DNA of 56,024 bases. It comes from a virus. This document shows, piece after piece, positions 2,651 through 41,311 of this stretch (its first letter is position 1; each line of letters starts with the position of its first letter). The notes below the pieces were generated by a model, which did no database searches, had not been told where the DNA came from, and saw only the letters and a program-made list of their open reading frames with translations. A program made the position numbers and the translations under genes. The DNA is taken from IMG/VR virus record IMGVR_UViG_3300045988_135919, positions 1-56,024 of that record; one strand, 5' to 3'.

Positions 2651-2981
2651 AACTTTAGAAGATTACTTTAATATTGAAGAGAAAAGTATAGAAGATATTA
2701 TGGACGATGAAGAAGAATGGGTTGAACCACCAATGAGAACCGAAGAAGAAATTGCTGAATACTTAAACGAAGCGTGTGATAAAGTATGGTATATGAGAAG
2801 TCATCCTTGTGATAATCCCGAAATAGAAAAAGGAAGATTAAAAGCAATTAAGAGAGTGGAAAAACAATACCCAGAAGTTAAAGATGGTTTTGATACTTGG
2901 GATTGTGGCTTTTGGAATGGTGTTTTAGGTACTCTTCGTTGGGTTTTAGGTAAAGAAGAAAAGGATATGTTAGATACATAA
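2637..2981 (+). CDS. Hypothetical acidic protein
   Basis: 114 aa. Co-oriented. TAATG junction with the next gene. Confidence 0.5.
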   Translation: MKKNKTLEDYFNIEEKSIEDIMDDEEEWVEPPMRTEEEIAEYLNEACDKVWYMRSHPCDNPEIEKGRLKAIKRVEKQYPEVKDGFDTWDCGFWNGVLGTLRWVLGKEEKDMLDT

Positions 2982-3622
2982 TGGACTTTCCTAGTTTTGA
3001 TGAATTGTTGGATATTAATTGTGATAATCCTAGATGGTATGAATTAGATAATTTACCAAACGAAGAGTGGAGAGATATTCAAGGTTATGAAGGATTATAT
3101 CAGGTTTCTAATTATGGAAGAGTTAAGAGTTTGGGAAGGATTTCCGGACGAAAAAGTAGGTGGGGAGGACAATACAATACAGTTGTAAAAGAGAAAATTA
3201 AAATTCCCTTTAAGAATAATAAAGGATATTGCATGATACATCTAAATAATAACGGAAAAGAATCTAATTTATTAATACATAGATTAGTTGGAGAAGCATT
3301 TATACCGAATCCTTATAATAACCCTGAAATTGACCATAAAAATGAGAATAAAAACGATAATAAAGTTAATAATTTAACATGGTGCACTAGACTTTATAAC
3401 AACACTAAAGGAGTTCAATCTAAAGATGGAAGAAGAAATTCTTCTCGGTTCAGAATGAGACCTGTTAAACAATATGACTTACAAGAAAAATTGCTAAATA
3501 TTTATGAAGGAATACGAATAGCAGAAGAAAAAACATTTGTTGATAATAGAAACATTGTTAAATGTTGCAAAGGTAAAGTAAAGACAGCAGGTGGTTTTAT
3601 TTGGAGATACGCTGATGAATGA
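2981..3622 (+). CDS. HNH homing endonuclease (NUMOD4-like N-terminus + HNH)
   Basis: WRDIQGYEGLYQVSNYGRVKSL (NUMOD4 pattern). IDHKNENKNDNKVNNLTW (HNH). Paralog of 7210-7866. Confidence 0.8.
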   Translation: MDFPSFDELLDINCDNPRWYELDNLPNEEWRDIQGYEGLYQVSNYGRVKSLGRISGRKSRWGGQYNTVVKEKIKIPFKNNKGYCMIHLNNNGKESNLLIHRLVGEAFIPNPYNNPEIDHKNENKNDNKVNNLTWCTRLYNNTKGVQSKDGRRNSSRFRMRPVKQYDLQEKLLNIYEGIRIAEEKTFVDNRNIVKCCKGKVKTAGGFIWRYADE

Positions 3623-6350
3623 TTTTGATAAATTAATCCAAGAACGACTTTGGGGATTCGATTTTGAAGTCACAATGTATGATTGGCTACTTGTATTAAT
3701 AAAATATTCAGATAAAACTAAAATAACTTTTCATAATGATATACCAGACAATGTTTACAAGTTTATATTTGATAATAATCCAATTTTAATAGGACATAAT
3801 GCACGTTATTATGACCAATACATATTAAAAGCAATACTATCTGGTTTTTCAGTGGGAGAAGTCAAGGAAGTCAATGACTATATTATTAATGGTGGTCAAG
3901 GGTTTGAATTACAATATGATAACGTACAAATCTCTCCGATATGGGATACCATACAAGATATTGTTCCTCCTAAAAGCTTGAAAGAAATTGAAGCTAATCT
4001 TTTAATGGATATTACAGAATCTACTGTTAGTTTTGATATAGACCATCCATGGAACGAGGAAGAATATAAAGAAATGCTTTACTACTGTACCAAAGATGTC
4101 GAGGCTTTATTTCCTTTATTTGAAGCAAGAAAAAGTTATTTTAAAACCAAATACGATTTGTGCATTTTATCAGGTATTGACACAACATATAATATGGGAT
4201 TAACAAATGCTAAATTATGTGCTAAATTCTTGGAAGCAGAAAAAATAGATAGAGATGATGAAAGAGAGTTTGTTATTCCAAAAACAATAGATTTAAATTA
4301 TGTTCCGAAAGAAATATTAAACTTTTTTGAGAGAGTACACGATAAAACAATTTCGGATGAAGAACTATTCACTAGTAAATTAGAATTTGACTTCCATGGT
4401 ATGCCATCTGTATTTGCGTCTGGTGGAGCCCATGGTGCATTACCAAACTACAGCTATGATGAAAAATTAACCCCCAATAAGGTGGTTATTAATGTTGATT
4501 ATTCAAGTCTTTATCCACATTTATTGGCTCTACCTGAGTATAATTTTATTTCTAGGAATATTAAAGATAAAAATAAATATTACGATACTCTTCAACGAAG
4601 ATTAAAATTAAAGCACGAGGGTAAAAAAGAAGAACAATTACCACTTAAGCTTATACTTAACACTACTTATGGTTGCCAGAACAATAAATATAATGATTTG
4701 TATGATCCCAAAGGAGCACGAAATACTTGTTGGACAGGTCAATTATTATTAGCGTCTATGACAGAAGAAGTGTTTCAAATTGGGGATGTAAAATTAATTC
4801 AAATAAACACAGATGGCTTAATGGTAGAACTACCGAGAGAAAAATTACCACAATATTATGATGTATGTAATAATTTTTCAAAAAGAGTTAAAATAGGAGT
4901 AGAATATGATATAATTCACAAAATAATACAACGTGATGTAAACAACTACATTTTACTATACGGAGATAACGAACATTTAAACGTTAAAGCAAAAGGTGGA
5001 TGTTTCGCAAGTTTACCAAAGTTAACTATCGAGAATGATGGTACCATTTCTAGTAAATATAAACCAGATTTTAAAGCCAACTCTTTGGCGATAGTTTCAG
5101 AAGCACTTGCAAAATATTTATTATTTGATATTCCTATTGAAGAAACAATATTAAATGAAAATATCATACACAAGTACCAACAGATCTCTCATCTCGGTTC
5201 AACCTATGAAAAATGTGTACAAGAAAGCCCGAATGGCGATATATTATTACAAAAGAATAACCGAGTGTATGCTGGACTAAAACCTAGTGGAAAAATAATA
5301 AAAGTTAAACCTGACGGAAGAAGAGATTCACTTGCTAACCAAGCACCTAATCCAATTATTGACAATGGAAACAAATGTACCATTGACCAAATTAATAAAC
5401 AGTGGTATATTAAACTTGCTACCCAATGGGCTAACGATTTCCTAGGTATTAAACGCCTAACTGAATATAAAAAAGAGGAACTATTAACTATGGCTAATGA
5501 TTTAGGTATGGTTGTGGATAAAAAAATAAAGAAAGATGACTTAATAAAGTTAATTGAAGAAAGAAATGAGGTAAAAAACATGGCTACTAAAAAAGTAGAA
5601 ACAAATGAAGAAGTAAAAACTATGACTATTTATGAAAAAATAGCAAAAATGACAAAAGAAATTAGAGAACACGATTTTATAATGGATTGTGCAAACCCTG
5701 GTAACCTTGGTGGAAAGGAATATGCGTCAATAGGTCAGTACTACAATCTATTACACAACTTATGCGACAAATATCGTTTATTATTTAAATGGAATGTTAT
5801 GGAATTAGAGTCCTTTGAAAAAGATGTATTTAAACCAACTGGAAAAATGCCATCTAACGTGGCAATAGTGAGTTGTACAGCAGATTTCATAGACCTCGAT
5901 GATACACAATTTAGTAGTATAACATATAGTGCTATGGCAGGTGGTAGTGATATTGCCGACAAATCAGTTAGTGGTGCTAGCACATTAGCATTTAGAAATT
6001 GGTTTGATAAAAATTTCACACCAAAATATATGAATACTATCGAAGAAGAAATAACAGAGTTATCTGAAGAAAAAACAGAAGCACCTAAGATACCTACATA
6101 TATTCCTACTGAAAGAAAAGAAGAAATAAAAAAAGAAGTAGTAGAAACAAAACAACATGAAGAATCTGATGACGAAGATATAAAAGAAGTTATCGGTAAA
6201 ATTATGAAAGTTAGAGAGTTAAGTGGAAACGATGAATGGGGTAAAGAAACATTAAAAGCACTTTATAGTGGCGAAGTTACTAGTGCTGATATTTTAGCAA
6301 TTAGTCTAAAAGTTGATACTAAATTAGAAAGTCTCGAGGTGACTGAATAA
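3615..6350 (+). CDS. DNA polymerase (3'-5' exo + family-B-like palm motifs) fused in frame to a HeH motif and an ERF-like annealing domain
   Basis: Exo motifs FDFEV, HNARYYDQY, YYCTKDVEAL. Polymerase motifs VDYSSLYPHL, KLILNTTYG, QINTDGL. HeH motif KEELLTMANDLGMVVDKKIKKDDLIKLI. ERF-like IYEKIAKMTKEI...KEYASIGQYYNLLHNLCDKY...VSGASTLAFRNWFDKNF. GGAG RBS sits 8 nt before ATG 3615. Confidence 0.8.
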   Translation: MNDFDKLIQERLWGFDFEVTMYDWLLVLIKYSDKTKITFHNDIPDNVYKFIFDNNPILIGHNARYYDQYILKAILSGFSVGEVKEVNDYIINGGQGFELQYDNVQISPIWDTIQDIVPPKSLKEIEANLLMDITESTVSFDIDHPWNEEEYKEMLYYCTKDVEALFPLFEARKSYFKTKYDLCILSGIDTTYNMGLTNAKLCAKFLEAEKIDRDDEREFVIPKTIDLNYVPKEILNFFERVHDKTISDEELFTSKLEFDFHGMPSVFASGGAHGALPNYSYDEKLTPNKVVINVDYSSLYPHLLALPEYNFISRNIKDKNKYYDTLQRRLKLKHEGKKEEQLPLKLILNTTYGCQNNKYNDLYDPKGARNTCWTGQLLLASMTEEVFQIGDVKLIQINTDGLMVELPREKLPQYYDVCNNFSKRVKIGVEYDIIHKIIQRDVNNYILLYGDNEHLNVKAKGGCFASLPKLTIENDGTISSKYKPDFKANSLAIVSEALAKYLLFDIPIEETILNENIIHKYQQISHLGSTYEKCVQESPNGDILLQKNNRVYAGLKPSGKIIKVKPDGRRDSLANQAPNPIIDNGNKCTIDQINKQWYIKLATQWANDFLGIKRLTEYKKEELLTMANDLGMVVDKKIKKDDLIKLIEERNEVKNMATKKVETNEEVKTMTIYEKIAKMTKEIREHDFIMDCANPGNLGGKEYASIGQYYNLLHNLCDKYRLLFKWNVMELESFEKDVFKPTGKMPSNVAIVSCTADFIDLDDTQFSSITYSAMAGGSDIADKSVSGASTLAFRNWFDKNFTPKYMNTIEEEITELSEEKTEAPKIPTYIPTERKEEIKKEVVETKQHEESDDEDIKEVIGKIMKVRELSGNDEWGKETLKALYSGEVTSADILAISLKVDTKLESLEVTE

Positions 6351-7210
6351 TGGGATGGTTAATTGGTGGAATTTTATTAACTATTATTTTAGCAATTTTT
6401 ATATGTATTGGAGAAAATTATAATAAAACTGATAAAATATACACACCTAAAGTTTTTCTAAGTCTATTCGGATTATTAATATGTTTATTTGGTTGTTTCA
6501 CAACAATTAAAACTGGTGAGATAGGTGTTAAGACTAGATTTGGTAAGATTGTAGGTTCGACAACTAATGAGGGTATCATATGGAAATCTCCCATTGATAA
6601 AGTTAATAAAATAAATATTAAAGTACAAAAGTATGAAAATGATAACCCATTAGATACTTCTACAAAAGATATGCAAATTGTTAACAATATAAAAGTTGCG
6701 ATTAACTACCAAATAGACGGAACGAAAGCTGTAGCTTTATATAAAACTGTTGGTAAAAAATATGAACAAATTGTACTTGAACCAGCTATTCAAGAAACTG
6801 TTAAAGGTGTTATATCAAAATACACATCGGAGGAGTTAGTAACGAAACGAAGTGAAATATCATTAGATATAAACACAACATTGAATGAAAAATTATCACA
6901 ATATGGTATTAAAAGTGTAGCAGTATCTATTAACAATTTTGATTTTAGTGAAGCATATAATCAAGCAATAGAGAAGAAAGCAGTTGCTGAACAAGAAGTT
7001 CAAACGTCAAAAAATCAATTAGAAAAAGCTAAAATAGATGCTGAAACAAAAAAGGTTAAAGCTCAAGGTGATGCCGAAGCCAATGACGTTGTAAATAAAA
7101 CATTAACAAAAGAGATTCTTATTGAAAAATGGATTGAAAAATGGAATGGATCCACACCAAAAGTAAGTGGTGGCAACAATATGATAGATATAAGTGAGTT
7201 GTTGAAATAA
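6350..7210 (+). CDS. SPFH/Band-7 (prohibitin/HflC-like) membrane protein
   Basis: N-terminal TM segments. GEIGVKTRFGKIVG...IWKSPIDKV...INIKVQ SPFH core, then a coiled-coil tail. TAATG coupling on both sides. Confidence 0.75.
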   Translation: MGWLIGGILLTIILAIFICIGENYNKTDKIYTPKVFLSLFGLLICLFGCFTTIKTGEIGVKTRFGKIVGSTTNEGIIWKSPIDKVNKINIKVQKYENDNPLDTSTKDMQIVNNIKVAINYQIDGTKAVALYKTVGKKYEQIVLEPAIQETVKGVISKYTSEELVTKRSEISLDINTTLNEKLSQYGIKSVAVSINNFDFSEAYNQAIEKKAVAEQEVQTSKNQLEKAKIDAETKKVKAQGDAEANDVVNKTLTKEILIEKWIEKWNGSTPKVSGGNNMIDISELLK

Positions 7211-7866
7211 TGAACTATGAATTTGTTGAACCAAATTCACCTAGATGGTTAAGCCTTGAAGATTTACCGAATGAAAGATGGAAGGATATTGAGGGTTATG
7301 AAGGATTATATCAAATATCTGATTATGGGAGAGTTAAAAGTTTGCGAAAAAAATATTATGGGGTACTGCGAACGAAAATTTCAAAACAAGGATATTGTTA
7401 TGTTGCCTTATCTAATAATAATATTCGGGAAGATTTTAGAATAAATAGATTAGTCGCTATTCATTTTTTAGGCAAATGTAAATATAAAAATCTTCAAGCA
7501 AATCATAACGATGAAAATAAACTAAATAATTATTACACAAACATAACTTGGATGACTCCTGCCGAAAATTGCAACTATGGAACACGCAATAAGCGTGTTG
7601 GTGAAAAACAACATATGCGAGTAAATCAATACGATTTGAATGGAAATTTCATAAAAACTTGGAATAGTTTGAGCGAAATAGGAAAAGTGTTAAATTTCTC
7701 AGTAAGTCACGTTAGTAGTTGTTGTAACGGTTATCGAAAAAGTGTAAACGGCTTTTTATGGAAATTATATGATGGTGATACAAAAAATATATCCCCATAT
7801 CAGCCAAAGACATTAAATCAATTTTCTATTAATTATAAGGAGGTAAAAAATGAATTGGAAGTATAG
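7210..7866 (+). CDS. HNH homing endonuclease (paralog of 2981-3622)
   Basis: WKDIEGYEGLYQISDYGRVKSL and ANHNDENKLNNYYTNITW. C-terminal HTH-like SEIGKVLNFSVSHVSSC. Confidence 0.8.
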   Translation: MNYEFVEPNSPRWLSLEDLPNERWKDIEGYEGLYQISDYGRVKSLRKKYYGVLRTKISKQGYCYVALSNNNIREDFRINRLVAIHFLGKCKYKNLQANHNDENKLNNYYTNITWMTPAENCNYGTRNKRVGEKQHMRVNQYDLNGNFIKTWNSLSEIGKVLNFSVSHVSSCCNGYRKSVNGFLWKLYDGDTKNISPYQPKTLNQFSINYKEVKNELEV

Positions 7867-8932
7867 TGAAGATAGAAAACATATAGAATTAGAACAACCA
7901 CCAAAGCAACATAAATTATTAACAGGAACTAGGTTTGCGAGTTGTTTGGGGTTGAATCCGTATTCCAGCCCTTTCCAAATTTGGTGCGAATGTACAAAAC
8001 TTGTTACACCACCATATGAAGAAACAATGTATACAAAAGCTGGAAAAATTATTGAAAAATTCCAAAGAGAATATGTTTCCAAGACGTTCCCAAATATAAA
8101 AGGACCAGAGGAATACTTTTCCAACGCTTACGAAATGTATAGATGGAATTTCTTCGATGAAAAATATAAACCATATGGAGGTTTATGGGATGCTGTTTCA
8201 ACTAAAAACAATGGAAAAGATATAGCAATGGTTGTTGAATTTAAAACAGCAAATTCAGCAGCGAAATGGGTGGACGGTCCACCAGTATATTACTTGATGC
8301 AAGGTGCATTATATGCAAAAATGTTAGGGCTAGATAAAGTGTTATTTGTAGCTAGTTTCTTATCACCTTTGGATTATGCACATCCGGAAGAATTTATTCC
8401 CAATGAAACCAATACAACAATGATAGTTAAAAGATTAAAAGATATTACTATAGAGTGTGATGGTGAGTATTTAAGTTTTGATGAATTATACCAAAAAGGA
8501 TTAGAGTTTTGGGATAAATATGTCAAAACCGGCATATCGCCAGAATTTGATGAAAAACTAGACAAAGAATACCTAGACATAATTCGTGCCTCTAAACCAA
8601 CTGAGGATAATGATTTAATTACCGTATGTTCAGAGGCTATTCAACTTGCTAAAGATATAAAGGAACTTGAAGTTTCTAGTGGATTAAAAGCTAAAAAAGA
8701 TGAATTAAAAGTTCTTGAAGCATGTATTAAAGATAAAATGATTAAAGATGAAATTTACTCTTGTAACAATTATACATTAAAACAAAGTACAAAAAAGGTG
8801 TTTAATGAAGAAATGTTTGCAAAAGAGAACGAAAAATTATATAATAAGTATGTAGAGGACAAAACATCCTATACTTTAAATAAAAATATTAAGGAGGAAA
8901 AAATCGATGGAAAAAATGAAAGTTGTAATTAA
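7850..8932 (+). CDS. YqaJ/lambda-Exo-like PD-(D/E)xK exonuclease with coiled-coil C-terminal extension
   Basis: LLTGTRFASCLGLNPYSSPFQIWCE (YqaJ N-motif). D..VVEFKT (D/ExK). YYLMQGALYAKML. AAGGAGG RBS. Confidence 0.7.
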   Translation: MNWKYSEDRKHIELEQPPKQHKLLTGTRFASCLGLNPYSSPFQIWCECTKLVTPPYEETMYTKAGKIIEKFQREYVSKTFPNIKGPEEYFSNAYEMYRWNFFDEKYKPYGGLWDAVSTKNNGKDIAMVVEFKTANSAAKWVDGPPVYYLMQGALYAKMLGLDKVLFVASFLSPLDYAHPEEFIPNETNTTMIVKRLKDITIECDGEYLSFDELYQKGLEFWDKYVKTGISPEFDEKLDKEYLDIIRASKPTEDNDLITVCSEAIQLAKDIKELEVSSGLKAKKDELKVLEACIKDKMIKDEIYSCNNYTLKQSTKKVFNEEMFAKENEKLYNKYVEDKTSYTLNKNIKEEKIDGKNESCN

Positions 8933-9585: not shown

Positions 9586-9610
9586 ACACACGAGAAATCG
9601 TGTGTTTTTT
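9586..9610 (+). terminator. Rho-independent terminator
   Basis: ACACACG-agaaat-CGTGTGT followed by T6. Confidence 0.8.
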
Positions 9611-9668
9611 CGTATAATTAAGTTAGAAAAAGATATAAAACGGTACACTTTCTTTTTCCAATGGAGAT

Positions 9669-9908
9669 GTGATATATATGAATGAAGATTATGAAAATGT
9701 AAAAAGTTATCTACTTCGTTCTATTTATAGCATCTCTATTTTTAATTGTAAAAAATTAGATATTACGGACAAAGAACTTTTAAGTCTTGTTAATAATCTA
9801 GTTAAGTATATAACAGATAAATGGGAGGATGATGTGGAATGTATAATCCATACAACAATCAATATTACGGACAACCTATTGGACAACCAAGATACACACA
9901 ACCAATAG
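9669..9908 (+). CDS. Hypothetical protein (weak call)
   Basis: 79 aa with a GTG/ATG start. Its 70-nt 3' overlap with the better-supported 9839 ORF lowers confidence. Confidence 0.3.
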   Translation: MIYMNEDYENVKSYLLRSIYSISIFNCKKLDITDKELLSLVNNLVKYITDKWEDDVECIIHTTINITDNLLDNQDTHNQ

Positions 9909-10240
9909 AACCACAACCAATTATCCCAAAACCAATGGGATTAAATGGTAAAGTAGTGGATTCAATCGAAACTGTAAAAGGAATGGATATAAATTTAGAT
10001 GGTAGTGTTAGCTATTTTCCATTAGCAGACGGAAGTAAAATTGTGACAAAACAATTAAATGTTGATGGTACCAGCAAAATAGTTGTCTACACGCAAACTA
10101 AAGAAGAGAATAAAGAGATTAAATATGTAACGAGTGATGAACTCGATAAAGCCATAAAAAAGATTGACTTGTCGGATATTAAAGATGATATAAAGTCGTT
10201 GAAGAAACAAGTTAAAGAGTTGAGGGATACTGATGAATAA
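9839..10240 (+). CDS. Accessory protein with Y/P/Q-rich N-terminus
   Basis: 133 aa. MYNPYNNQYYGQPIGQPRYTQPIEPQP, then a globular part and a coiled-coil tail. GGAGG upstream. Confidence 0.55.
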   Translation: MYNPYNNQYYGQPIGQPRYTQPIEPQPIIPKPMGLNGKVVDSIETVKGMDINLDGSVSYFPLADGSKIVTKQLNVDGTSKIVVYTQTKEENKEIKYVTSDELDKAIKKIDLSDIKDDIKSLKKQVKELRDTDE

Positions 10241-10460
10241 CCCAATAAATATGATAAAACTGATGATGGGAAAAATGTCGCCAAAAGATATGGCAATGTC
10301 AATGCTTAAAGATAACTCTAATCCGGTATGTTCAAATCTCATCAATATGATGGAAAAGAACGATGAAAAAGGTATTGAAGAGTTTGCCAGAAACATTTGT
10401 AAAGAAAAAGGAATTGATTTCGATAAAGATTTTCCTAATTTCATGAATAATTTTAAATAG
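10233..10460 (+). CDS. Small Met/Asn-rich accessory protein
   Basis: 75 aa. Start overlaps the upstream stop. Confidence 0.5.
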   Translation: MNNPINMIKLMMGKMSPKDMAMSMLKDNSNPVCSNLINMMEKNDEKGIEEFARNICKEKGIDFDKDFPNFMNNFK

Positions 10461-10530
10461 GTATCTACTATTTTGGTGTAACCACCTAAATGGTTTGATA
10501 TATAAAAAGAATAAGAAAGGAGGGAAATAA

Positions 10531-11364
10531 ATGAGAGATACAGGTTTATCTGCATCAGATGTTGCTTTATTAAGTGGAAACACTGGTAGAAATAATGATG
10601 GCTTTGGTGGAGATGGATGGGCAAGTTGGATTGTCATATTTTTGATTTTCGCTTTCTTCGGTTTTGGTAACAGAGGATGGGGAAATGGCGGAAACGGTTC
10701 TACAGGAAGTGGTGCATTAGACAATTATGTTCTAGCGTCAGACTTCGCTACTTTACAAAGACAACTTAGTGATAATTTCTCTAACCTAACATCACAGGCA
10801 AGATATATTCAAAATGGTATTTGCGATAGTGCATATTCAACCGCACAATTGATTAATGGTGTTAATACAAACATTGCTGGTTCAACAGCAGCACTTCAAA
10901 ACAGTTTATGTCAAGGATTTAATAGCGTTAACCAAGGTATCGTAACTAATGGTTATGAAACTAGAAATGCTATAAGTGATGTTGGTTATAGATTACAAGA
11001 CTGCTGCTGCCAAACACAACGTGCTATTGATGGTGTAAACTTCAATATGGCTCAAAACACTTGTGCTATAACTACTGGTGCTAATAACAACGCTAGGGAT
11101 ATAATTGATGCTATCAATGCTTCATACAACAATTTACACAACGAAATAGTTGCAAATAGAATTGAAGACAAGAACGCTCAAATAACTGCTCAACAAAATG
11201 AAATTAATGCGTTAAGATTATCTGCTAGTCAGGCTGCACAGAATAGTTTCTTAATTGACCAATTAAAACCATGTGCTTCTCCAGCATATATTGTTCCAAA
11301 TCCAAATTGTTGCTATAATTCTTATAACTTAACAAGTGGATGCAATGGTTGTGGAAGTTATTAA
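10531..11364 (+). CDS. Gly-rich / single-TM / Cys-rich coiled-coil accessory protein
   Basis: 277 aa. GFGGDGWASWIVIFLIFAFFGFGNRGWGNGGNG (TM flanked by Gly runs). CCC triplet. C-terminal CCYNSYNLTSGCNGCGSY. AAGGAGGG RBS. Confidence 0.7.
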   Translation: MRDTGLSASDVALLSGNTGRNNDGFGGDGWASWIVIFLIFAFFGFGNRGWGNGGNGSTGSGALDNYVLASDFATLQRQLSDNFSNLTSQARYIQNGICDSAYSTAQLINGVNTNIAGSTAALQNSLCQGFNSVNQGIVTNGYETRNAISDVGYRLQDCCCQTQRAIDGVNFNMAQNTCAITTGANNNARDIIDAINASYNNLHNEIVANRIEDKNAQITAQQNEINALRLSASQAAQNSFLIDQLKPCASPAYIVPNPNCCYNSYNLTSGCNGCGSY

Positions 11365-11367
11365 TGC

Positions 11368-11453
11368 GTAACCCTATTTAGGAAACTCGATTACGAGAAC
11401 ACGCGATTTTCCTTTTAAAAGGAAATCAAAGATAGGGTAACACCTATCTTTTT
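11368..11453 (+). promoter_or_regulatory. Riboswitch/attenuator-like leader with mutually exclusive P1 and terminator helices
   Basis: ACCCTAT (11371-77) can pair with ATAGGGT (11432-38). The same ATAGG is the 5' arm of terminator AGATAGG-gtaaca-CCTATCT+T5 (11430-11453). Internal hairpins: CTCG-atta-CGAG and TTCCTTTT/AAAAGGAA. Confidence 0.4.
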
Positions 11454-11513
11454 AAAGTGGTCGAATTCGACCAGATTACAAAAATGTGATTTATAAAAAA
11501 TATAAAGAAAGGA

Positions 11514-11969
11514 ATGATAAAAGTGATACAAAGCATGATAAACGACATAACACTATTGTCAAGTAACTCCGCTCCTATTAATTTTGTTAGAGATTGTATA
11601 AGAACAAGAAGTACTTATAATTGGTTATGTAGAAACACTGGTGGTCCACTTTATAAAATAAAACAAGGTGGAAATTATAAAGTAACATTTAATGCAAACG
11701 TTACAAGTACAGCAACAGGTGTTGTTGCTCTAGGTCTATATGCTGATGGGGTATTATTACCAGGTACAACTGTTATAGCTGATATAGCAACAGCCGGTTC
11801 TTATTATAATGTATCTTTTGATAAAATAGTGCCAATATGCTGTGGCACATCAACAACATTAACAGTAGCCTCTGTTCCTAGTGTATTAACTGGTGCAACA
11901 CCAGCAGCTACTGTAACACAAGTACCAACTATTCAAAATGCAAATTTAACGATAACACGTTTGTCATAG
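11514..11969 (+). CDS. BclA C-terminal-domain-like (C1q/TNF jelly-roll-like) protein, no collagen repeats
   Basis: NYKVTFNANVTSTATGVVALGLYADGVLLPGT...NANLTITRL resembles the BclA CTD pattern FYKITVIANTA...IQVNGVPVPGT. The start is ambiguous (ATG 11514, GTG 11523). Confidence 0.5.
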   Translation: MIKVIQSMINDITLLSSNSAPINFVRDCIRTRSTYNWLCRNTGGPLYKIKQGGNYKVTFNANVTSTATGVVALGLYADGVLLPGTTVIADIATAGSYYNVSFDKIVPICCGTSTTLTVASVPSVLTGATPAATVTQVPTIQNANLTITRLS

Positions 11970-11979
11970 GTGATTCAAT

Positions 11980-12432
11980 ATGGAAGAAAAAGAATTAACT
12001 ACAACAGAAAGCATAAAATCAGAAGTTGAAAAAATACTCGGTGATATATCAAATGAAGGTATTAATAGAGATAATGTTGACTATGTTTATAAACTTGTTG
12101 ACGTTCATAAAGATTTGGAGCAAGAAAATTATTGGGAGGTGAAAAAAATGTATTACGGAAATTATAGAAGAGATGACTACGATGATATGAGCTATGGACG
12201 TAGAAGAAGAGATTCGAGAGGACGTTATAAAGGTCATGATATGATTGAGGATATGAGAGAAAACTACGACCGTTATAGCGAAAATCGTAGATATGGTGGA
12301 AAAGATACATCAGAATCTTTAGAGTATATGCTAGAGAGCATTGTATGTTTCGTTGAAATGCTTGAAGAAGATGCTTCTGAACAAGACATTAATCTTATTA
12401 GAAAATATACAAGAAGAATAGCTGAGATGTAA
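11980..12432 (+). CDS. Hypothetical protein with R/D/Y-rich low-complexity centre
   Basis: 150 aa. YYGNYRRDDYDDMSYGRRRRDSRGRYKG. Confidence 0.55.
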   Translation: MEEKELTTTESIKSEVEKILGDISNEGINRDNVDYVYKLVDVHKDLEQENYWEVKKMYYGNYRRDDYDDMSYGRRRRDSRGRYKGHDMIEDMRENYDRYSENRRYGGKDTSESLEYMLESIVCFVEMLEEDASEQDINLIRKYTRRIAEM

Positions 12433-12433
12433 T

Positions 12434-12793
12434 ATGTTTGAATATTATAATGCAAATCCATTAAACAATGATATTTCTGATTGTTTTATTAGAGCAACGT
12501 CTTTAGCTGAGGGTTTATCTTGGCGACAATGTCAAGAGAAACTAAGTAGACTCGCAAGAGAACAAGGTGAAATGTTAGACAATGTTGATTTTGTAGAAAA
12601 CTATCTTGACGATAGGTATCCTAGACAATGTCATTATTCTAAAACAGTTGGTGAGTTTATAGATGAACATCCATGGGGCACATATCTTATTACAATGCCG
12701 GATCATATTACATGTGTGATAGATGGTGTTTGTTATGACACTTTTAATTGTTTAGATAAAGTTATGCGTTGTGCTTGGAAAGTTAAAAAATAA
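12434..12793 (+). CDS. Hypothetical protein with spaced Cys...His...Asp (possible papain-like fold)
   Basis: 119 aa. NNDISDCFIRA...MPDHITCVIDGVCYDTF. The fold assignment is a guess. Confidence 0.45.
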   Translation: MFEYYNANPLNNDISDCFIRATSLAEGLSWRQCQEKLSRLAREQGEMLDNVDFVENYLDDRYPRQCHYSKTVGEFIDEHPWGTYLITMPDHITCVIDGVCYDTFNCLDKVMRCAWKVKK

Positions 12794-12817
12794 AGGTCTA
12801 ATAATTAGACCTTTTTA
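12792..12817. terminator. Terminator closing the accessory operon (possibly bidirectional)
   Basis: AAAGGTCTA-ataat-TAGACCTTT+TT. An A-run lies upstream. Confidence 0.75.
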
Positions 12818-12908: not shown

Positions 12909-13151
12909 TTAGTCTAGTGAGGTATAATCCATTATCTTAGTAAATATCTTTCTCATATCGGTACTAATCTTCCATTCTGAGCAACCTAGTTTAAAACTAA
13001 TAGCTACTCTACTCATATCTTGATTGATACAAGTTAAAAGATTTGTTTCATATTCGTTTAGTCCAACCTCATTACAAAGTTTAATGAGATTAGGAAGGCA
13101 CATTGATTTTATTTGGTGTTTGATTTTTATAAAGTCTTGTTTGGTTAACAT
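12909..13151 (-). CDS. Mini HTH protein (sigma-70 region-4/LuxR-like)
   Basis: 80 aa. LNEYETNLLTCINQDMSRVAISFKLGCSEWKISTDMRKI. AGAGGTGG RBS. Confidence 0.5.
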   Translation of the reverse strand: MLTKQDFIKIKHQIKSMCLPNLIKLCNEVGLNEYETNLLTCINQDMSRVAISFKLGCSEWKISTDMRKIFTKIMDYTSLD

Positions 13152-13336: not shown

Positions 13337-13558
13337 TTAAAACATTAAATCTTTAACTTTATCAAATATATCGTGCTTTCTTCTTTGTATTGTTCTGGCA
13401 CTATATCCTATTTCATTTCCTATTTGAGAACTACTCATTCCTTTAACTAGCATGGATAATATTCGCTTTTCTTGTTTGTAATCATTTAATACATCACTGC
13501 ACATTAAATACTTATAAACGGGTTCTTTAAATTTGAATCTATATTCAAACGTTTTCAT
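13337..13558 (-). CDS. Mini HTH protein (sigma-70 region-4 / YlxM-like)
   Basis: 73 aa from ATG 13558 (GGAGGGGGAG RBS). QEKRILSMLVKGMSSSQIGNEIGYSARTIQRRKHDI. Confidence 0.6.
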   Translation of the reverse strand: MKTFEYRFKFKEPVYKYLMCSDVLNDYKQEKRILSMLVKGMSSSQIGNEIGYSARTIQRRKHDIFDKVKDLMF

Positions 13559-13580
13559 ACTCCCCCTCCTTTTTGCGAAT

Positions 13581-13609
13581 ATAATAACATTTATTGACAA
13601 ATTTGTCAA
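13581..13609 (-). promoter_or_regulatory. SigmaA-type promoter (TTGACA-17-TATTAT) with a 16-bp palindrome over the -35
   Basis: -35 at 13604-09, -10 at 13581-86. Perfect palindrome TTGACAAATTTGTCAA at 13594-13609. Confidence 0.65.
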
Positions 13610-14119: not shown

Positions 14120-14911
14120 TTATTTAGACAACCATTTTTTGAATAGGTCAATTATTGCTCTAATTAATTTTTTAATAAAGTTTTCTGTTATCTCAGGTTC
14201 AGGAGTAGGTTCAGGTTCAGGTGTTGGAGTAGGTTCTGGAATTGGTTCTTCTTTCAATGGATGATATACAACACAATCACTAGCACCTGCTATCCACTTA
14301 CCTTCTTCTACTTCATACCAAGTGAATTCTCCATCCTCATAAGTAGATGTAATATTATAATAACCTTTTTTAGCAACACCAATTATTTCACTATTTGTGC
14401 TATGGTCTGTTCTAACTCTCATAGTATCATCCCAAGCGATTTCAACTTGATTAACTTTATCGTTTGTTTCGACAGGATTAGGAAGTTCTATTATAGTAAA
14501 TAAGTCCTTATCAACATATTCGGTAGGGTCTATTCTTACACCATCTTTTCTAACTTCAAAGTGAAGATGCCCACCGAAAGCTCGTCCTGAATTACCCATA
14601 TATCCTAATTCTTGACCTTTTGTTACATATTGTCCGTTACTAACATATAAACCTTTTTGCATATGTGCATATAATGTTTCATAACCTTTACCATGGTCTA
14701 GTTTAATACAGTTTCCGTAACTTGCATTACCTGTTGAGTTGGTATCATTGTTTAAACCATCTTGATGAAAAACAACTTTACCATCAGTATGTGCAACTAT
14801 CGTATCTAATGTATACCCAGGTCCAACTATATCGTTTGCTAAATGGGCATCGGAAAATCCTTGAGTTGTTTCACATTGACCACTCTTTAAAATTCTACAA
14901 CTTCTACTCAT
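14120..14911 (-). CDS. Endolysin: M23 (LytM-type) peptidase + SH3-like domain + PT-rich linker + cationic amphipathic C-terminal helix
   Basis: HTDGKV...DHG...YAHM...GNSGRAFGGHLHFEV (M23 metal/catalytic motifs). SH3-like VRTDHSTNSEIIGVAKKGYYNI...WYEVEEGKWIA. PEPTPTPEPEPTPEPE, then NFIKKLIRAIIDLFKKWLSK. Confidence 0.85.
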   Translation of the reverse strand: MSRSCRILKSGQCETTQGFSDAHLANDIVGPGYTLDTIVAHTDGKVVFHQDGLNNDTNSTGNASYGNCIKLDHGKGYETLYAHMQKGLYVSNGQYVTKGQELGYMGNSGRAFGGHLHFEVRKDGVRIDPTEYVDKDLFTIIELPNPVETNDKVNQVEIAWDDTMRVRTDHSTNSEIIGVAKKGYYNITSTYEDGEFTWYEVEEGKWIAGASDCVVYHPLKEEPIPEPTPTPEPEPTPEPEITENFIKKLIRAIIDLFKKWLSK

Positions 14912-35379: not shown

Positions 35380-35455
35380 TGGAGGTAACGGTGGGATTCG
35401 AACCCACGATAACGGAGTTGCAGTCCGTTTTCTTGAACCACTTGAGTACGTTACC
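35380..35455 (-). tRNA. tRNA-Cys (GCA), CCA encoded
   Basis: GGTAACG/CGTTACC acceptor stem. ACGGA-CTGCAAC-TCCGT anticodon arm. GTGGG-TTCGAAT-CCCAC T arm. U73 discriminator (a CysRS identity element). The D stem is weak. Confidence 0.85.
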
Positions 35456-36432
35456 ATAAAACAAAAATGTGTACCAATACCTACAAATTAGAAAGGAGGT
35501 GATTTGGTACACGCACAAAATAAAATGAAAAACATCGAATTGGGAGTAGGTCCACAACGCCCTACATATAAATTACACATAATGACTAACGAACATTCAT
35601 ATTACATAAAAAAGGAAGCCTTGTAATAAATATTTAAATTATGTGTATTACTGGAAGTGGATAGTCCCCCTAAGGTCTGACCTTTCACAGTTTTCCCAAT
35701 AATTTTGTTCTTTAAAAAAATTATAAGCGGTGCTTCTCGCACTAATATAATATGAACATTTATTATTCAGCCACTAGGAAGTGTTGGTCCTGAGAGGGAG
35801 CTACCGTCTTTCCTCCAACACCTTTTGATCCTACGTAAGAGTGATACTTGCAACTTTCACACGAATTAGACTTTAATACTTTCATTCGCTAACCAGGCGA
35901 TAATTAAATATGTAGATTTGTGCTACTCATACGAAGGACTAATCTTATACCTTTCTCACGAAAGTTCAACTACATACTCACTTATTTTGATATTACAACT
36001 CCTCTTGGGTTATCAAGCCCATAAGTTCTATTGCCTTATTCCGAACATGGATGCAAACCACCCATGCCATTTCAGATTGTGTAAGCGACTAGCCTTCTGC
36101 TTTACAAACTCTCATACCATACCACCATTATCTCTTTTCATGCTTTGCATGTTCCATTCTCCAGTTTCCCTTCAAATCACTCAATCCATCTATCGTATCC
36201 GACAAACTAATAAGTACAAGATAATGTCCATACTGTGTTTCGCACAGTCTTTCATATGGTTCGCTTATAAACTTCTTAAAAAATAAAATTGTGATGCACT
36301 AAGATATTGTTATTTGAGAGAATAATCAAGAAAGTTGTTATCCAACTTAGGATTATTCCGGATGAATATTTTTTTACGAGTGTGATACTCCTATCACTAC
36401 AATTTCTCTTTTTAAGAAATATTATCTCAATG
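35456..36432 (-). ncRNA. ORF-free, hairpin-dense ~1-kb RNA upstream of the tRNA (large structured ncRNA candidate, ROOL/GOLLD-like context)
   Basis: No minus-strand ORF >=60 aa. Own promoter and terminator. G+C-richer core around 35640-36290. Many local helices, e.g. CUUUC-GUGA-GAAAG at 35951-64. Confidence 0.5.
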
Positions 36433-38472: not shown

Positions 38473-38523
38473 AAAAAAAAAGAACCCTAGGTGAAGTAAT
38501 ATTTCAAAGGGGGACACCTAGGG
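38473..38523 (-). terminator. Strong rho-independent terminator
   Basis: Minus strand reads CCCTAGGTG-(21 nt)-CACCTAGGG followed by TTCTTTTTTTTT. Confidence 0.7.
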
Positions 38524-38666
38524 CGAGGATTTAAGGTTTCACTAATATATGATTATGCACTAAACAAATGTGAACCATCAACATTGTAGAAAAAATTGCT
38601 CACGTAGCACTCTCTACTGCACTACATCCTAATTATATCAAATAAAATAAAAAATGTCAACCAATA

Positions 38667-38801
38667 TCAAATAAATATAACACACAACACCACAAATAGT
38701 AACAATAAAAGAAATGATAAACATGATAAAAACCAACTAACCATAACTTTCTCATTTTTTATAGTATTTATAAATTCTTTAAAGATTCTAACAATTTCCA
38801 T
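38667..38801 (-). CDS. Possible 44-aa tail-anchored membrane peptide
   Basis: MEIVRIFKEFINTIKNEKVMVSWFLSCLSFLLLLLFVVLCVIFI. AGGTGG RBS. Below the track cutoff. Confidence 0.35.
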   Translation of the reverse strand: MEIVRIFKEFINTIKNEKVMVSWFLSCLSFLLLLLFVVLCVIFI

Positions 38802-38840
38802 ACGTCCACCTACTTTATAATGTTATTATATCATATAAAT

Positions 38841-38868
38841 ATAAAAAGAAAAAGAGCATTCGCTCTTT
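38841..38868. terminator. Hairpin AAAGAGC-attc-GCTCTTT (terminator on minus, partial on plus)
   Basis: 7-bp stem. Minus-strand read is followed by TTCTTTTTAT. Confidence 0.5.
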
Positions 38869-39022
38869 TCTAGAAGTTTTTAGTATTTTAGAACTTTTTG
38901 CTATATTAAGCTAATGCTATGGATATTCACGCAACAGATTGTACCAAATCCATTGCTAATTAAATTATATCAAATCACCCATCCCATGTCAACATTTTTT
39001 CGCAAACTTTTAAAAAAGTTTT

Positions 39023-39051
39023 TACAAACTTTATACAAACTTTATACAAAC
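39023..39051. repeat. Tandem 11-mer TACAAACTTTA x2.6
   Basis: Read directly. Lies 65-90 nt upstream of the -35 at 39115. Confidence 0.8.
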
Positions 39052-39114
39052 CCATCACAAATGTAAAGATTGTGTAAAATATGAAAAAATCAATACAAAT
39101 ATGTTACTAAAACA

Positions 39115-39144
39115 TTGACATGGATGATGTTAATATGATATTAT
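39115..39144 (+). promoter_or_regulatory. Promoter (TTGACA-18-TGaTATTAT)
   Basis: Shares ATGT(T)ACTAAAACAyTTGAC...TAATATGATA with the promoter at 40196. Confidence 0.6.
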
Positions 39145-39709
39145 CAAGTTGTGATTGAGGAAAAAGTCAAAATTATTCAAAGAGTCTAAAAATATTAAAG
39201 AAAATCATACAAACCTTAAAATTATACACTTATTCGTATCAATGAATGATTACAATTAAACCTTTGTAGGTCCAAAAAGACCTCAATCATGTAGTAATAT
39301 CTTATAATCCATACTATTTAATTATCTATGTTTAATGACCGGTAAAATTAAGCAACATTAAACAATATTATGAAAGAAGAGGTGAAAAACCACTTCCTAT
39401 CTATCTAATATATACAAACAGTATATATCTATCTATAGTTAGATTAGTATGGATTATATTTGTTGTTTTTTACAACATACGATAATAGATATTAGCATGG
39501 AGATGTTTATGTTATATAATGTACAGTGTGCATTGCACATCGCACATCGTGCAAAAAGTATTACCAATGATATTAAATAAAGAAATCATAGTTACCATCA
39601 CCTTTATATGCAACTATGCAACATTTAAAGAATAAGAAAAAATCTCTAAATATAAACGTTTCCATGGTACTATCTATCGTAGTACCAAATTGTCTTCTAA
39701 TTTAAATCG

Positions 39710-39739
39710 CCCATTCTCACAATGAGAGTGGGATTTTTA
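39710..39739 (+). terminator. Rho-independent terminator
   Basis: CCCATTCTCA-caa-TGAGAGTGGG (10 bp, one G-U) followed by ATTTTTA. Confidence 0.75.
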
Positions 39740-39768
39740 TTGACATTAGTGCTAGGTTTTGGTATAAT
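39740..39768 (+). promoter_or_regulatory. Promoter (TTGACA-17-TGgTATAAT)
   Basis: -35 at 39740-45, -10 at 39763-68. Abuts the preceding terminator. Confidence 0.7.
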
Positions 39769-39774
39769 GTATTT

Positions 39775-39910
39775 GAGGTTCTTATTTCTTTGTTTCAAAT
39801 TTATATCATCCTCTAAACGATAATTTGTTAGACAAATAAGAATCTTAAGCTAAATATTATTTTTTTATTTTTTTTCAATGGAAGAGAGATGAGTTTCTCT
39901 TCTTTTTTTA
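39775..39910 (+). ncRNA. Candidate ~135-nt sRNA (promoter to terminator, no ORF)
   Basis: Long stem 39775-39787/39834-39846, a U-rich spacer, and terminator GAAGAGA-gatgagtt-TCTCTTC+T7 (39880-39910). Confidence 0.5.
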
Positions 39911-40137
39911 TTACTTAGGAATGATTGAGCTATTGCTTTTTATGTAAATAGAATAGTTATGGTTTTAGGGATGATGATTGTGAGAATTTAAGTATATGGA
40001 GGATATTAGAATTAGGTAAGGAGTTTTGAAAATTAAATTTTGCTCGAGCACCTAATTCAAAGCCTGGGGGTATGGGGTGCGTATAGGGGGAACCCCCTAA
40101 GCCCTATGGTTTTCGACTGGGTAAAATATAGGGATAA

Positions 40138-40151
40138 CGAACAGTTGTTCG
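40138..40151. promoter_or_regulatory. Perfect Cheo (Gram-positive LexA/SOS) box CGAACagttGTTCG
   Basis: Matches CGAAC-N4-GTTCG exactly. Lies 44 bp upstream of the -35 at 40196. Confidence 0.5.
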
Positions 40152-40195
40152 TCATTAAAAACATTAAAAAATTATAATAAAATGTACTAAAACAC

Positions 40196-40224
40196 TTGAC
40201 TTATAAAGTCTAATATGATACAAT
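40196..40224 (+). promoter_or_regulatory. Promoter (TTGACT-17-TGaTACAAT)
   Basis: -35 at 40196-201, -10 at 40219-24. Confidence 0.65.
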
Positions 40225-40254
40225 ATATATGTAAATAAAGAAAGGAGCAATGTT

Positions 40255-40488
40255 ATGATACTAAGTAGAAAACAGGTCATAGAGCTATCAAAAACATTAG
40301 ACGCTAAGGACATAACAAACAGTAATAGTGAAGATGTAACAAGATTATATATAACGGAAAGAGGTTTTACAACAATTGCATATTCATTTGGTACTTATGG
40401 CCTTAACTCTTGCTTATGTAAAGGAAATACAAGCAATAATATGTTCGTAATAACAGCTAGAAACACCAACTTATTTATTATTATGTAA
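40255..40488 (+). CDS. Hypothetical protein
   Basis: 77 aa. AAAGGAG RBS. First gene after promoter 40196. Confidence 0.6.
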   Translation: MILSRKQVIELSKTLDAKDITNSNSEDVTRLYITERGFTTIAYSFGTYGLNSCLCKGNTSNNMFVITARNTNLFIIM

Positions 40489-40499
40489 AGGTGTCTATA

Positions 40500-40652
40500 A
40501 TGAAAAATAAGCTATTAAAAATTAAATGGGACTTAATAACCCTACTTCAAACTAACAAACAAGCTTTTGAAGAAACAAAAGACTTGTATATCGCTAATAA
40601 TATAGAAGAACTAAACAAAATAATAAATAAACTTGATAACTTGCTTAATTAA
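40500..40652 (+). CDS. Possible 50-aa helical protein
   Basis: AAGGTG RBS 6 nt upstream. Below the track cutoff. Confidence 0.4.
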   Translation: MKNKLLKIKWDLITLLQTNKQAFEETKDLYIANNIEELNKIINKLDNLLN

Positions 40653-40733
40653 CAACTTTTGTGTAATCTAGCTTATACACGTTCCAAGCCGTGATGAGAA
40701 ATAGAGAGGACGCAAAAAAGAAAGGGTTATAAT

Positions 40734-40913
40734 ATGTACAAAATAATATTATATCAAGTAATTATTACCCCTAAAACGAGGGGTAAAGTCATAGACAAAA
40801 AAACTATTGCAACATATAGACATATTAACAAAAGAGACTTATCTACTAAGTCAATAGAAATCAAGAAAAAGTTTTCAACATGGAATACTTGCCTTGAATT
40901 TATAAAGGAGTGA
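40734..40913 (+). CDS. Possible 59-aa basic protein
   Basis: Weak RBS (AAAGGG). Below the track cutoff. Confidence 0.3.
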   Translation: MYKIILYQVIITPKTRGKVIDKKTIATYRHINKRDLSTKSIEIKKKFSTWNTCLEFIKE

Positions 40914-40918
40914 TTAAA

Positions 40919-41047
40919 ATGATAACATGGTTTATAATAAAATTGTTAAAACATTCAATAAAAAGCATGCGATTTATGTTCAAGCTTATGATATGTATAA
41001 TTCTAAGCCCTTTTTGGTTTATAATGGGAGTAATAAAAACGAAGTAA
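40919..41047 (+). CDS. Possible 42-aa hydrophobic peptide
   Basis: MITWFIIKLLKHSIKSMRFMFKLMICIILSPFWFIMGVIKTK. AAGGAG lies 8 nt upstream. Competes with track ORF 40927-41151. Confidence 0.35.
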   Translation: MITWFIIKLLKHSIKSMRFMFKLMICIILSPFWFIMGVIKTK

Positions 41048-41151
41048 TAAACGTGAATATTACTCTTTTAATCGTGCCTATAATATCCGTTATAGGTAGG
41101 GTTAAAAGAATAATAAAGGGTTGTTTGTTCCTTGAAAATTTATGTTATTAA
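40927..41151 (+). CDS. Alternative-frame 74-aa ORF (weak)
   Basis: No RBS of its own. Overlaps the better-signalled 40919 peptide. Confidence 0.2.
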   Translation: MVYNKIVKTFNKKHAIYVQAYDMYNSKPFLVYNGSNKNEVINVNITLLIVPIISVIGRVKRIIKGCLFLENLCY

Positions 41152-41311
41152 TATACGTTATAAACGTATAAAACCCTCATTTTTCAACACTTTATAAACA
41201 CGAACAGGAAGTGTAAACCGAACAAGTGTTTGAGTGTAAAGCGAATAGATGTTTGTGTGTTTTAGGAGACAATCTTTAGTGTATCTTAAAATCGAAGTTG
41301 ATAAAAGTTGC

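Follow-up and report, generated by a model that had tools for sequence, protein, structure and literature searches.

The locus at positions 9839-12793 of the IMG/VR virus record IMGVR_UViG_3300045988_135919 raises the question of what six adjacent genes, none of which matches a replication or virion family, do for the phage that carries them. The window analysed here is the stretch from position 1 to 56,024 of this record, a tailed-phage genome of ~56 kb with ~30% G+C. The genes form six open reading frames (ORFs) on the + strand, located between two terminator hairpins and behind a TATAAT box of their own, and encode in this order YPQ (133 amino acids, aa), NNP (75 aa), TMCC (277 aa), a jelly-roll protein (148 aa), RDY (150 aa) and PEP (119 aa). 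A first-pass annotation, made from the sequence alone, had described a discrete terminator-bounded unit without replication or virion signature, uncharacterised as a set, and had proposed as one hypothesis the decoration or remodelling of the host cell or spore surface, as in a spore coat or exosporium, with virion decoration as an equal alternative. The six ORFs and the motifs it quoted from the 277 aa protein were recovered exactly at its coordinates, and both hairpins were found by a terminator scan and by folding. The set has indeed escaped description: none of the six proteins reaches the curated threshold in Pfam, NCBIfam or PADLOC, the PHROG families matched are all of unknown function, and literature searches returned no paper on the module or on a function for any of its families. 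The cassette is a real six-gene module, whose order is kept while it moves among very different gut phages. Its conservation and mobility, the gene set and order, the jelly-roll fold, the invariant triad of PEP and the adjacency to lysis genes are secure.

Evidence for the module comes from a census of 47 TMCC-bearing loci, scanned with profile hidden Markov models (HMMs) built from our own alignments; as these loci were gathered by similarity to TMCC, the co-occurrence figures are conditional on this gene. TMCC is directly followed by a TNF-like gene (30 loci) or by a gene for a protein termed Type B (14 loci) in 44 of the 47, and is accompanied by NNP in 40, by YPQ and PEP in 39 each and by RDY in 37. 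The order YPQ-NNP-TMCC-(TNF/B)-RDY-PEP is present in at least 24 loci, and a PEP-first variant occurs in eight. Overall, ~30 of the 47 loci share the gene order between unrelated flanks. Numerous independent contigs contain homologues of all six genes, arranged as in the window; the co-occurrence in other genomes, which the first-pass annotation had named as a check on itself, is thus found. Near-identical DNA is absent among GenBank phages. A scan of species-representative genomes yielded 40 contigs. Nearly all of them stem from metagenome-assembled genomes, and the taxa assigned to them include Bacilli, 'Mollicutes', Clostridia, Erysipelotrichaceae, Lachnospiraceae, Melainabacteria and Bacteroidales; these host attributions are not relied on, because phage contigs are often mis-binned.

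The cassette follows genes for a DNA polymerase and an exonuclease in the window and in loci L019, L029, L046 and L049, and in the window a gene for a 147 aa protein on the same strand precedes it as well. In the window and L049 it is furthermore convergent with a holin and an M23 endolysin. L011 has a tail gene upstream of the cassette and holin and endolysin directly downstream, and L013 likewise has a holin-like gene on the downstream side. Bajarodcaudo virus 5 carries the cassette directly downstream of holin and endolysin, Dulem virus 35 between the minor and major capsid genes. The crAss-like cr116_1 contains a TMCC gene with divergent neighbours, inserted between lysis and capsid genes; crAss001 lacks this insert at the same site. 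In the Vescimonas fastidiosa MM35 prophage the set comes after holin and amidase, where the prophage ends and the host genes ldh and miaB adjoin it, and in the cultured Butyrivibrio virus Ceridwen all six genes follow the endolysin gene directly. A partial set is found in Clostridium perfringens phages (e.g. CPD1), and a reduced, divergent version in crAss-like phages of Bacteroidales. Butyrivibrio and Bacteroidales hosts do not sporulate, and the module is not specific to spore-forming hosts. Ceridwen has been observed only in the lytic cycle (PMC7372960, a study without proteomics).

Conservation is unequal along the cassette. Identity to the close relative L049 amounts to 96% for the TNF-like protein, 93% for TMCC and 88% for NNP, compared to 84% for DNA polymerase and 82% for exonuclease, with lower values for PEP (68%), YPQ (65%), RDY (60%) and the tail fibre proteins (37-50%). 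In distant genomes the cassette proteins are 41-68% identical, with DNA polymerase at 38-47% or flanks that are wholly unrelated. The conservation of TMCC and the jelly-roll protein implies that the pair is under strong purifying selection, and in this respect it differs from genes involved in host range or in an arms race. As the pair is more conserved than DNA polymerase, we rejected both a role in determining host range and one as a rapidly evolving exclusion factor; as a whole, the cassette is far more conserved than the tail fibres and therefore not taken as a host-range determinant.

The TMCC gene and its surroundings are recurrent targets of inserted elements. The homologue in L036 is interrupted by a group I intron (6442-6723, +; Rfam RF00028, 69.7 bits), and the gene in L046 is split (4792-6075) by an insert with a 318 aa GIY-YIG-type ORF, where no Rfam intron match is found. 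Free-standing homing endonucleases of HNH/NUMOD type have repeatedly entered the same junction of the cassette, on either strand; they are often found just before the TMCC gene, on its border with NNP, or else behind the jelly-roll gene (L004, L007, L009, L018, L019, L021, L027, L028, L030, L032, L033, L038 and L048). The window itself has two HNH/NUMOD-type genes in its replication arm (2981-3622 and 7210-7866), and L036 additionally contains a skipping-rope RNA (11845-11947, +; Rfam RF02924, 58.8 bits).

TMCC (10531-11364, +) matches phrog_16490 (E = 2e-36) and belongs to a family of more than 7,000 homologous clusters (clusters at 90% identity, E <= 0.001) without Pfam domain. From the N-terminus it consists of a 28 aa peptide, a Trp/Gly-flanked hydrophobic segment, a DNYVLASDF motif, ~180 aa of predicted helix, a Pro-rich CPxPAY element and a Cys/Gly-rich tail ending in GCGxY; an invariant CCC is located within the helical part. 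The N-terminus with its hydrophobic segment between Gly runs (GFGGDGWASWIVIFLIFAFFGFGNRGWGNGGNG), the CCC triplet and the tail (CCYNSYNLTSGCNGCGSY) are all present in the window. The hydrophobic segment, (A/S)WWIIxFLIFxxxGWG, is kept from phages of Clostridia to crAss-like phages and is flanked by Gly/Asn-rich linkers with almost no Lys or Arg. A strong Shine-Dalgarno sequence (AAAGGAGGG) precedes the gene. The AlphaFold2 (AF2) model is all-helical, with a predicted local distance difference test score (pLDDT) of 41, too poor for a fold search. The TMCC profile gives weak, non-significant matches (E = 0.2-2) to the HR1 helices of coronavirus spikes, as is typical of coiled coils, and crAss-like TMCC homologues carry the annotation 'spike protein/glycoprotein'. 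Searches of PDB sequences, both with single sequences and with profiles, gave nothing significant for TMCC, the jelly-roll protein, PEP, Type B or YPQ.

The gene following TMCC encodes a stand-alone jelly roll of TNF/C1q/BclA-C type with conserved Cys pairs. The first-pass annotation had recognised this gene but placed its start at 11514; the start is most likely the GTG at 11523 (11523-11969, +, 148 aa), because homologues are 148-152 aa long and begin with MIQS. The further description of its product as a BclA-C-like jelly roll without collagen repeats is supported. Pfam BclA_C (PF18573) scores 27.8 bits (E = 2.6e-6) and thus stays below the gathering cut-off of 38, but several close members among the 901 homologues carry a precomputed PF18573 match. 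The AF2 model is of good quality (pLDDT 89, predicted TM score 0.83), and Foldseek against the PDB returns 3twi, 1wck, 9h38, 8d02, 7r1m and 4-1BBL with probability 1.0 and TM scores of 0.6-0.69. The nearest solved structures comprise the BclA C-terminal domain, F-BclA, BxpB/ExsFA/ExsF (TM score 0.68), 4-1BBL and a cyanophage fibre tip, and in BFVD the protein matches ~135 aa stand-alone gut-phage proteins at TM scores of ~0.8. Modelling therefore confirms a predicted ten-strand jelly roll that can be superposed on the BclA C-terminal domain, C1q or TNF. The leader and GXY collagen repeats of BclA-type exosporium glycoproteins are both lacking. The Cys-rich Type B protein, which occupies the same slot in the other 14 loci, shows no relation to the TNF-like protein in hhalign, and the choice between the two does not follow the type of TMCC C-terminal tail.

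NNP (10233-10460, +) possesses three NP/NNP-capped helices rich in Met and Leu, and its gene is always located directly upstream of TMCC, with at most a homing endonuclease gene in between. YPQ (9839-10240, +; phrog_21718, function unknown, E = 5e-4) consists of a Y/N/P/Q-rich N-terminus, a conserved beta-rich core (GLxGKxVDS...DGSxSYFP...DGT) and a K/E-rich helical tail. RDY (11980-12432, +; phrog_28802, E = 2e-6) has a low-complexity middle rich in R, D, Y and G between helical ends and no Pfam match. Divergent cassettes in L041 (7264-7923) and L043 (7696-8178) carry DUF7841 (Pfam PF25223, E = 1e-18 to 3e-35), which in L041 is fused to an R/D/Y-rich region; no paper mentioning DUF7841 was found. 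None of the cassette products has a signal peptide or lipobox.

PEP (12434-12793, +; phrog_3754, E = 2e-20) had been noted for a Cys, His and Asp in succession, and this triad proves invariant in 32 sequences down to 26% identity, together with N6, N8, D16 and R20. The triad residues C17, H91 and D102 are spaced by 74 residues from Cys to His and by 11 from His to Asp, with the Cys in a D-C-x-x-R-A motif at a helix start. Invariant Cys, His and Asp in this order are those of papain-like and C39 enzymes, and PEP is here regarded as a putative papain-like or transglutaminase-like Cys-His-Asp enzyme. The alignment of 32 members gives no Pfam match, no PDB match by profile at E <= 10 and no NCBIfam peptidase match. 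PEP has 793 representative homologues, labelled 'putative peptidase' in some Bacillus phages, and longer proteins containing the domain show no known fused domain. It also occurs solitarily, without the rest of the cassette, in Bacillus phage Izhevsk (L047, 9583-9978) and other Tsamsa-like phages, in Lak megaphages, Geobacillus GBK2 and Pseudomonas phages. The Izhevsk gene is located among early-region genes, adjoining a Ser/Thr kinase gene and near an Ocr-like anti-restriction gene.

The reading that we favour, and hold tentatively, is a module of six genes, autonomous and mobile by horizontal transfer, whose products would form a membrane-inserting spike acting at the cell envelope around lysis. 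Joint transfer, a preserved order and function in phages of unrelated background argue for a self-sufficient module building one assembly, with TMCC and the jelly-roll protein as its core. Action at the envelope around lysis is suggested by the position of the cassette, which borders on lysis genes in almost every context and in four or more independent arrangements. TMCC would provide a hydrophobic segment for membrane insertion, a long, probably trimeric helical stalk and a Pro/Cys/Gly-rich tail. The jelly-roll protein, or Type B in other phages, would form a trimeric cap or hub, possibly docked on the Pro-rich tail of TMCC by analogy with the binding of ExsF to the Pro-rich leader of BclA. 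NNP, to judge by its composition, may act as a chaperone that shields the hydrophobic segment before insertion, the low-complexity proteins YPQ and RDY may serve as scaffolds or adaptors, and PEP may mature or cross-link spike components. The spike would then act at the envelope of the infected cell near lysis, in release or a linked step, and not on spores. The oligomeric state, the binding partners, the chaperone and protease roles, the site and the timing are what we infer in this scheme.

Several observations weigh against the spike. The hydrophobic segment comprises only ~11 residues in some homologues and has almost no flanking Lys or Arg, which is atypical of a plain membrane anchor and leaves the topology of TMCC undefined in a positive-inside analysis. 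Trimerisation of TMCC is suggested by composition only, as the AF2 model is unusable. The partner proteins, lacking signal peptides, could not reach an outward-facing stalk before lysis. The location within the head-gene cluster of Dulem virus 35 fits a virion role, and the neighbourhood of lysis genes is a generic landing site for any accessory gene. The cassette promoter resembles the other host-type -10 promoters of the genome, and the very strong conservation is unlike that of typical exclusion or conversion genes.

The closest competitor is a virion fibre or decoration, a possible account that we nevertheless consider rather improbable. TMCC would here be a trimeric coiled-coil fibre with its hydrophobic N-terminus plugged into the particle, in the manner of the fibres of reovirus (sigma1) and adenovirus. 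Its knob would be the TNF-like protein, and the other proteins would be assembly factors, with cysteines cross-linking after release. TNF/C1q-like domains are common at phage fibre tips, and the Foldseek lists contain the CBD of the cyanophage A-1(L) fibre, collagen-like fibres and fibritin. The position among head genes in Dulem virus 35 and between tail and lysis genes in L011 would suit a structural part, as would conservation at the level of core genes, the strong Shine-Dalgarno sequence of TMCC and the presence of Cys-rich proteins without signal peptides, which resemble spore-surface proteins assembling in the cytoplasm. The carriers, however, range from siphovirus-like phages and podoviruses of the crAss-like type to 'Myoviridae sp.' entries in BFVD, and a fitted part should not transfer freely between particles so unrelated. 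Moreover, crAss001 does without the cassette at the homologous site, terminators, promoter and often an HTH (helix-turn-helix) gene separate the cassette from structural operons, and it is far more conserved than the neighbouring tail fibres.

A bolder form of the favoured spike is unlikely. The cassette would then encode an unrecognised, self-contained phage machine, a protease-matured, chaperone-delivered, fusion-protein-like membrane spike common to gut phages of Gram-positive-type and Bacteroidales hosts, in which a Gly-rich hydrophobic peptide heads a trimeric coiled coil capped by a TNF-like trimer. If true, the spike would perform a general infection step that is missing from current models, e.g. 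a membrane step in release that is independent of the type of host envelope.

Self-assembling, cross-linked 'coat-like' material, made in the infected cell and freed at lysis, where it would protect or aggregate particles or debris in the form of a matrix or sheath with PEP as transglutaminase, appears quite unlikely. It draws on a composition rich in Cys, Tyr, Gly and Q/P like that of coat or extracellular-matrix proteins, on Cys-His-Asp being the transglutaminase triad, on the resemblance of the jelly roll to exosporium ExsF/BxpB and BclA, and on the unrelated Cys-rich protein that can fill the slot after TMCC, as suits building blocks. Yet there is no sequence relation to coat, exosporium or Ena families, non-spore-formers are among the hosts, we know of no phage precedent, and the hydrophobic segment with its dedicated small partner would be left unexplained.

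Decidedly improbable is an organiser at the cytoplasmic face of the membrane, where TMCC would anchor a complex on the inner side and YPQ and RDY would form a condensate concentrating replication or assembly, loosely like phi29 p1 and p16.7. A cytoplasmic complex is the simplest topology for partners that lack signal peptides, two of them have prion-like or R/D/Y low-complexity regions, and the lineage of the window has the cassette after DNA polymerase, exonuclease and the 147 aa protein on the same strand. Most other genomes, in contrast, place the cassette in or after the late or lysis region and not with replication genes, the window itself has a terminator between the replication operon and the cassette, and it is not apparent what the conserved cysteines and the TNF-like fold would contribute to an organiser of this kind.

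Still less probable is a protease-activated effector, in which PEP would be a distant C39-like peptidase that trims the N-terminal peptide of TMCC and exposes a membrane-perturbing, Gly-rich hydrophobic peptide at the head of a coiled coil, comparable to a class I fusion protein or to a bacteriocin with double-glycine leader. The consensus of such leaders is LSxxELxxIxGG. The N-terminus of TMCC (LSASDVALLSGN) fits the leader register with GN instead of GG, and D10, A12 and G16 are conserved; the match is short, and the second Gly is replaced by Asn or Asp. The 74/11 spacing of PEP is close to that of C39 peptidases, which served as comparison, but no HMM similarity to C39 or any other peptidase is present. 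The spike HR1 matches and the 'spike protein/glycoprotein' label of crAss-like homologues point in the same direction, although the former are not significant. Furthermore, the cassette and its vicinity lack an ABC exporter, the cassette has no C-terminal anchor with a second heptad repeat, and PEP also stands alone in Bacillus, Lak and Pseudomonas phages.

The spore or exosporium version, a special case of the coat-like material and the role proposed in the first-pass annotation, is at best barely credible and was rejected on host range, Butyrivibrio and Bacteroidales phages carrying the cassette, and on the absence of family matches, no cassette protein matching spore-coat, exosporium, YjcZ, CotY/ExsY, CdeC or Ena/DUF3992 families at E <= 1 (Pfam) or E <= 0.1 (NCBIfam); what the cassette shares with coat proteins is composition and a single, widespread fold. 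Three known identities were likewise tried and discarded. Holins have fewer than 150 aa, one to three transmembrane segments and a charged C-terminus, compared to the 277 aa, single hydrophobic segment and long helical domain of TMCC, and L049 has a separate holin. A two-component spanin would require a lipobox or lipoprotein partner, which is lacking, and the Butyrivibrio, C. perfringens and Vescimonas hosts have a Gram-positive-type wall. Of the PADLOC models none matches the cassette as a defence system, weak coiled-coil matches to the ZorA tail (E = 4e-4, 17 bits) being the only ones obtained.

The window is organised in two arms. The + strand arm carries replication and recombination genes, including DNA polymerase (3591-6350), a RecE/YqaJ-like exonuclease (7850-8932) and helicases and primase at 45-53 kb. 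The - strand arm runs from ~38 kb down to 13 kb with TerL, portal, major capsid protein, tape measure and tail proteins, and contains the M23 endolysin at 14120-14911; in L049 a Phage_holin_Dp1 holin adjoins the endolysin. From this layout the cassette is located at the convergence of the two arms, beside the lysis genes. A 286 aa gene between DNA polymerase and an HNH endonuclease (6350-7210, +) matches phrog_200 ('lipoprotein'), and its homologue in L049 has Pfam Band_7/SPFH, which is unusual for a replication operon. Between packaging/late genes and the upstream - strand genes, the window contains a full-length ROOL RNA (35711-36283, -; Rfam RF03087, 200 bits, all 574 model positions) adjoined by a tRNA gene (35383-35455, -). 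A stretch of ~4.7 kb between the divergent arms (38518-43200), with very few ORFs and the lowest G+C of the window (0.23-0.29), may be an origin or regulatory region or may encode non-coding RNAs.

An intrinsic terminator on the + strand (9586-9611; hairpin 9586-9605 plus T-run, -11.4 kcal/mol, z = -3.5) ends the replication/recombination operon upstream of the cassette. Directly after its T-run the sequence shows a TATAAT -10 box (9613-9618, +), the putative cassette promoter. The same layout of terminator, T-run and (TG)nTATAAT is repeated on the - strand at ~15.2 kb, 15.45 kb and 38.8 kb, and comparison of promoters within the genome gave no early or late timing for the cassette. A hairpin 3' of the TMCC gene (11428-11451, +; -11.3 kcal/mol, z = -3.5), for which the scan picked the - strand, is a possible internal terminator or attenuator. 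Downstream, a bidirectional terminator (12792-12817; hairpin 12792-12814, -10.2 kcal/mol on the + and -10.7 kcal/mol on the - strand) is shared with the convergent - strand unit. Both flanking hairpins fold well beyond shuffled controls, and the region contains 14 terminator-like sites compared to 2.1 expected from shuffles. Rfam has no match inside the cassette.

Where the first-pass annotation had counted six to seven proteins, the six are conserved and the seventh is not. This doubtful small leader ORF of 79 aa (9669-9908, +) overlaps the next gene by 70 nt, has a single weak homologue, in L046 (E = 2.5e-7), and lacks a called equivalent in L049, the closest relative, which leaves six genes in the conserved set. 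Upstream of the YPQ gene a leader with a -10-like box followed by GAAAGGAGA... is present in the window (9620-9665) and in many other loci, among them L011, L013, L015, L030, L031 and L033. It continues with an A-rich and then a T-rich stretch, which may either fold into a hairpin or encode a very short peptide of 14-25 aa, K-rich and then Leu/Phe-rich (e.g. MKPKKLLLYFLLLI).

Small HTH genes neighbour the cassette. Very often such a gene, with a tail resembling sigma region 4, is found immediately upstream of it; in the window, two of them are located close behind the cassette, on the opposite strand. The first (12909-13151, -, 80 aa) has homologues adjoining the cassette in L019, L029 and L046, and genes of this class neighbour the cassette in most other genomes. 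The second (13337-13609, -, 90 aa) is sigma-70 region-4/GerE-like, with an NCBIfam sigma70-ECF match (E = 5e-4) well below cut-off, a PHROG label 'transcriptional regulator' and a weak GerE match in L049; by adjacency it is a candidate regulator linked to the cassette.

Few parts of these genomes are as well conserved as the module, which crosses from siphoviruses of Clostridia to crAss-like phages. Conserved mobile six-gene units usually correspond to a discrete activity, and six families without known function or Pfam entry constitute a sizeable blind spot in gut phage biology. The cassette is accessible in culture with the lytic Ceridwen on B. fibrisolvens DSM 3071, the V. fastidiosa MM35 prophage and, for the partial version, C. 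perfringens phages.

Among known systems, NNP recalls the C-terminal domain of SGTA/Sgt2, a Met-rich 'helical hand' with NNP motifs that holds transmembrane segments: NNP has its three NP/NNP-capped Met/Leu-rich helices encoded just before the gene with the hydrophobic segment. The likeness is one of composition, and Pfam STI1-type models give no match to NNP. PEP is similar to small papain-fold enzymes (C39, transglutaminase-like cores) in its Cys at a helix start, followed by His and by Asp 11 residues on, but differs in having no profile match to a Pfam, NCBIfam or PDB peptidase. TMCC shares with spanins (lambda Rz/Rz1) the N-terminal hydrophobic segment, long coiled coil, conserved cysteines, Pro-rich element and holin/endolysin neighbours; unlike spanins, it has no lipobox partner, occurs in phages of hosts with Gram-positive-type wall, is twice the size of Rz and shows no sequence relation to it. 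Viral fibres with TNF-like knobs (reovirus sigma1, adenovirus fibre, PRD1 P5 and C1q-tipped phage fibres) combine, as the cassette presumably does, a trimeric stalk, a TNF-like head and a hydrophobic N-terminal anchor, whereas in the cassette stalk and head are encoded by separate genes, the hydrophobic segment is membrane-like, the unit moves between particle types and four extra genes are present.

The ExsF/BxpB-BclA complex of the exosporium (8d02, 7r1m, 9h3d; 1wck) offers the nearest structural parallel, the jelly roll being a stand-alone protein of 148 aa, the size of ExsF/BxpB (TM score 0.68). ExsF trimers bind the Pro-rich leader peptide of BclA-type fibres at their trimer interfaces (PMC12357932), and by analogy the conserved Pro-rich motif that ends the long helical stalk of TMCC may be a comparable ligand. 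The cassette differs in its sub-threshold BclA_C match, in a helical stalk without collagen repeats or exosporium leader, and in being encoded by phages, including those of non-sporulating hosts, without any other exosporium gene. The folds themselves (jelly roll, coiled coil, Cys-His-Asp core) are ordinary; what is new is the module, which may yet prove to be a modified fibre or lysis accessory.

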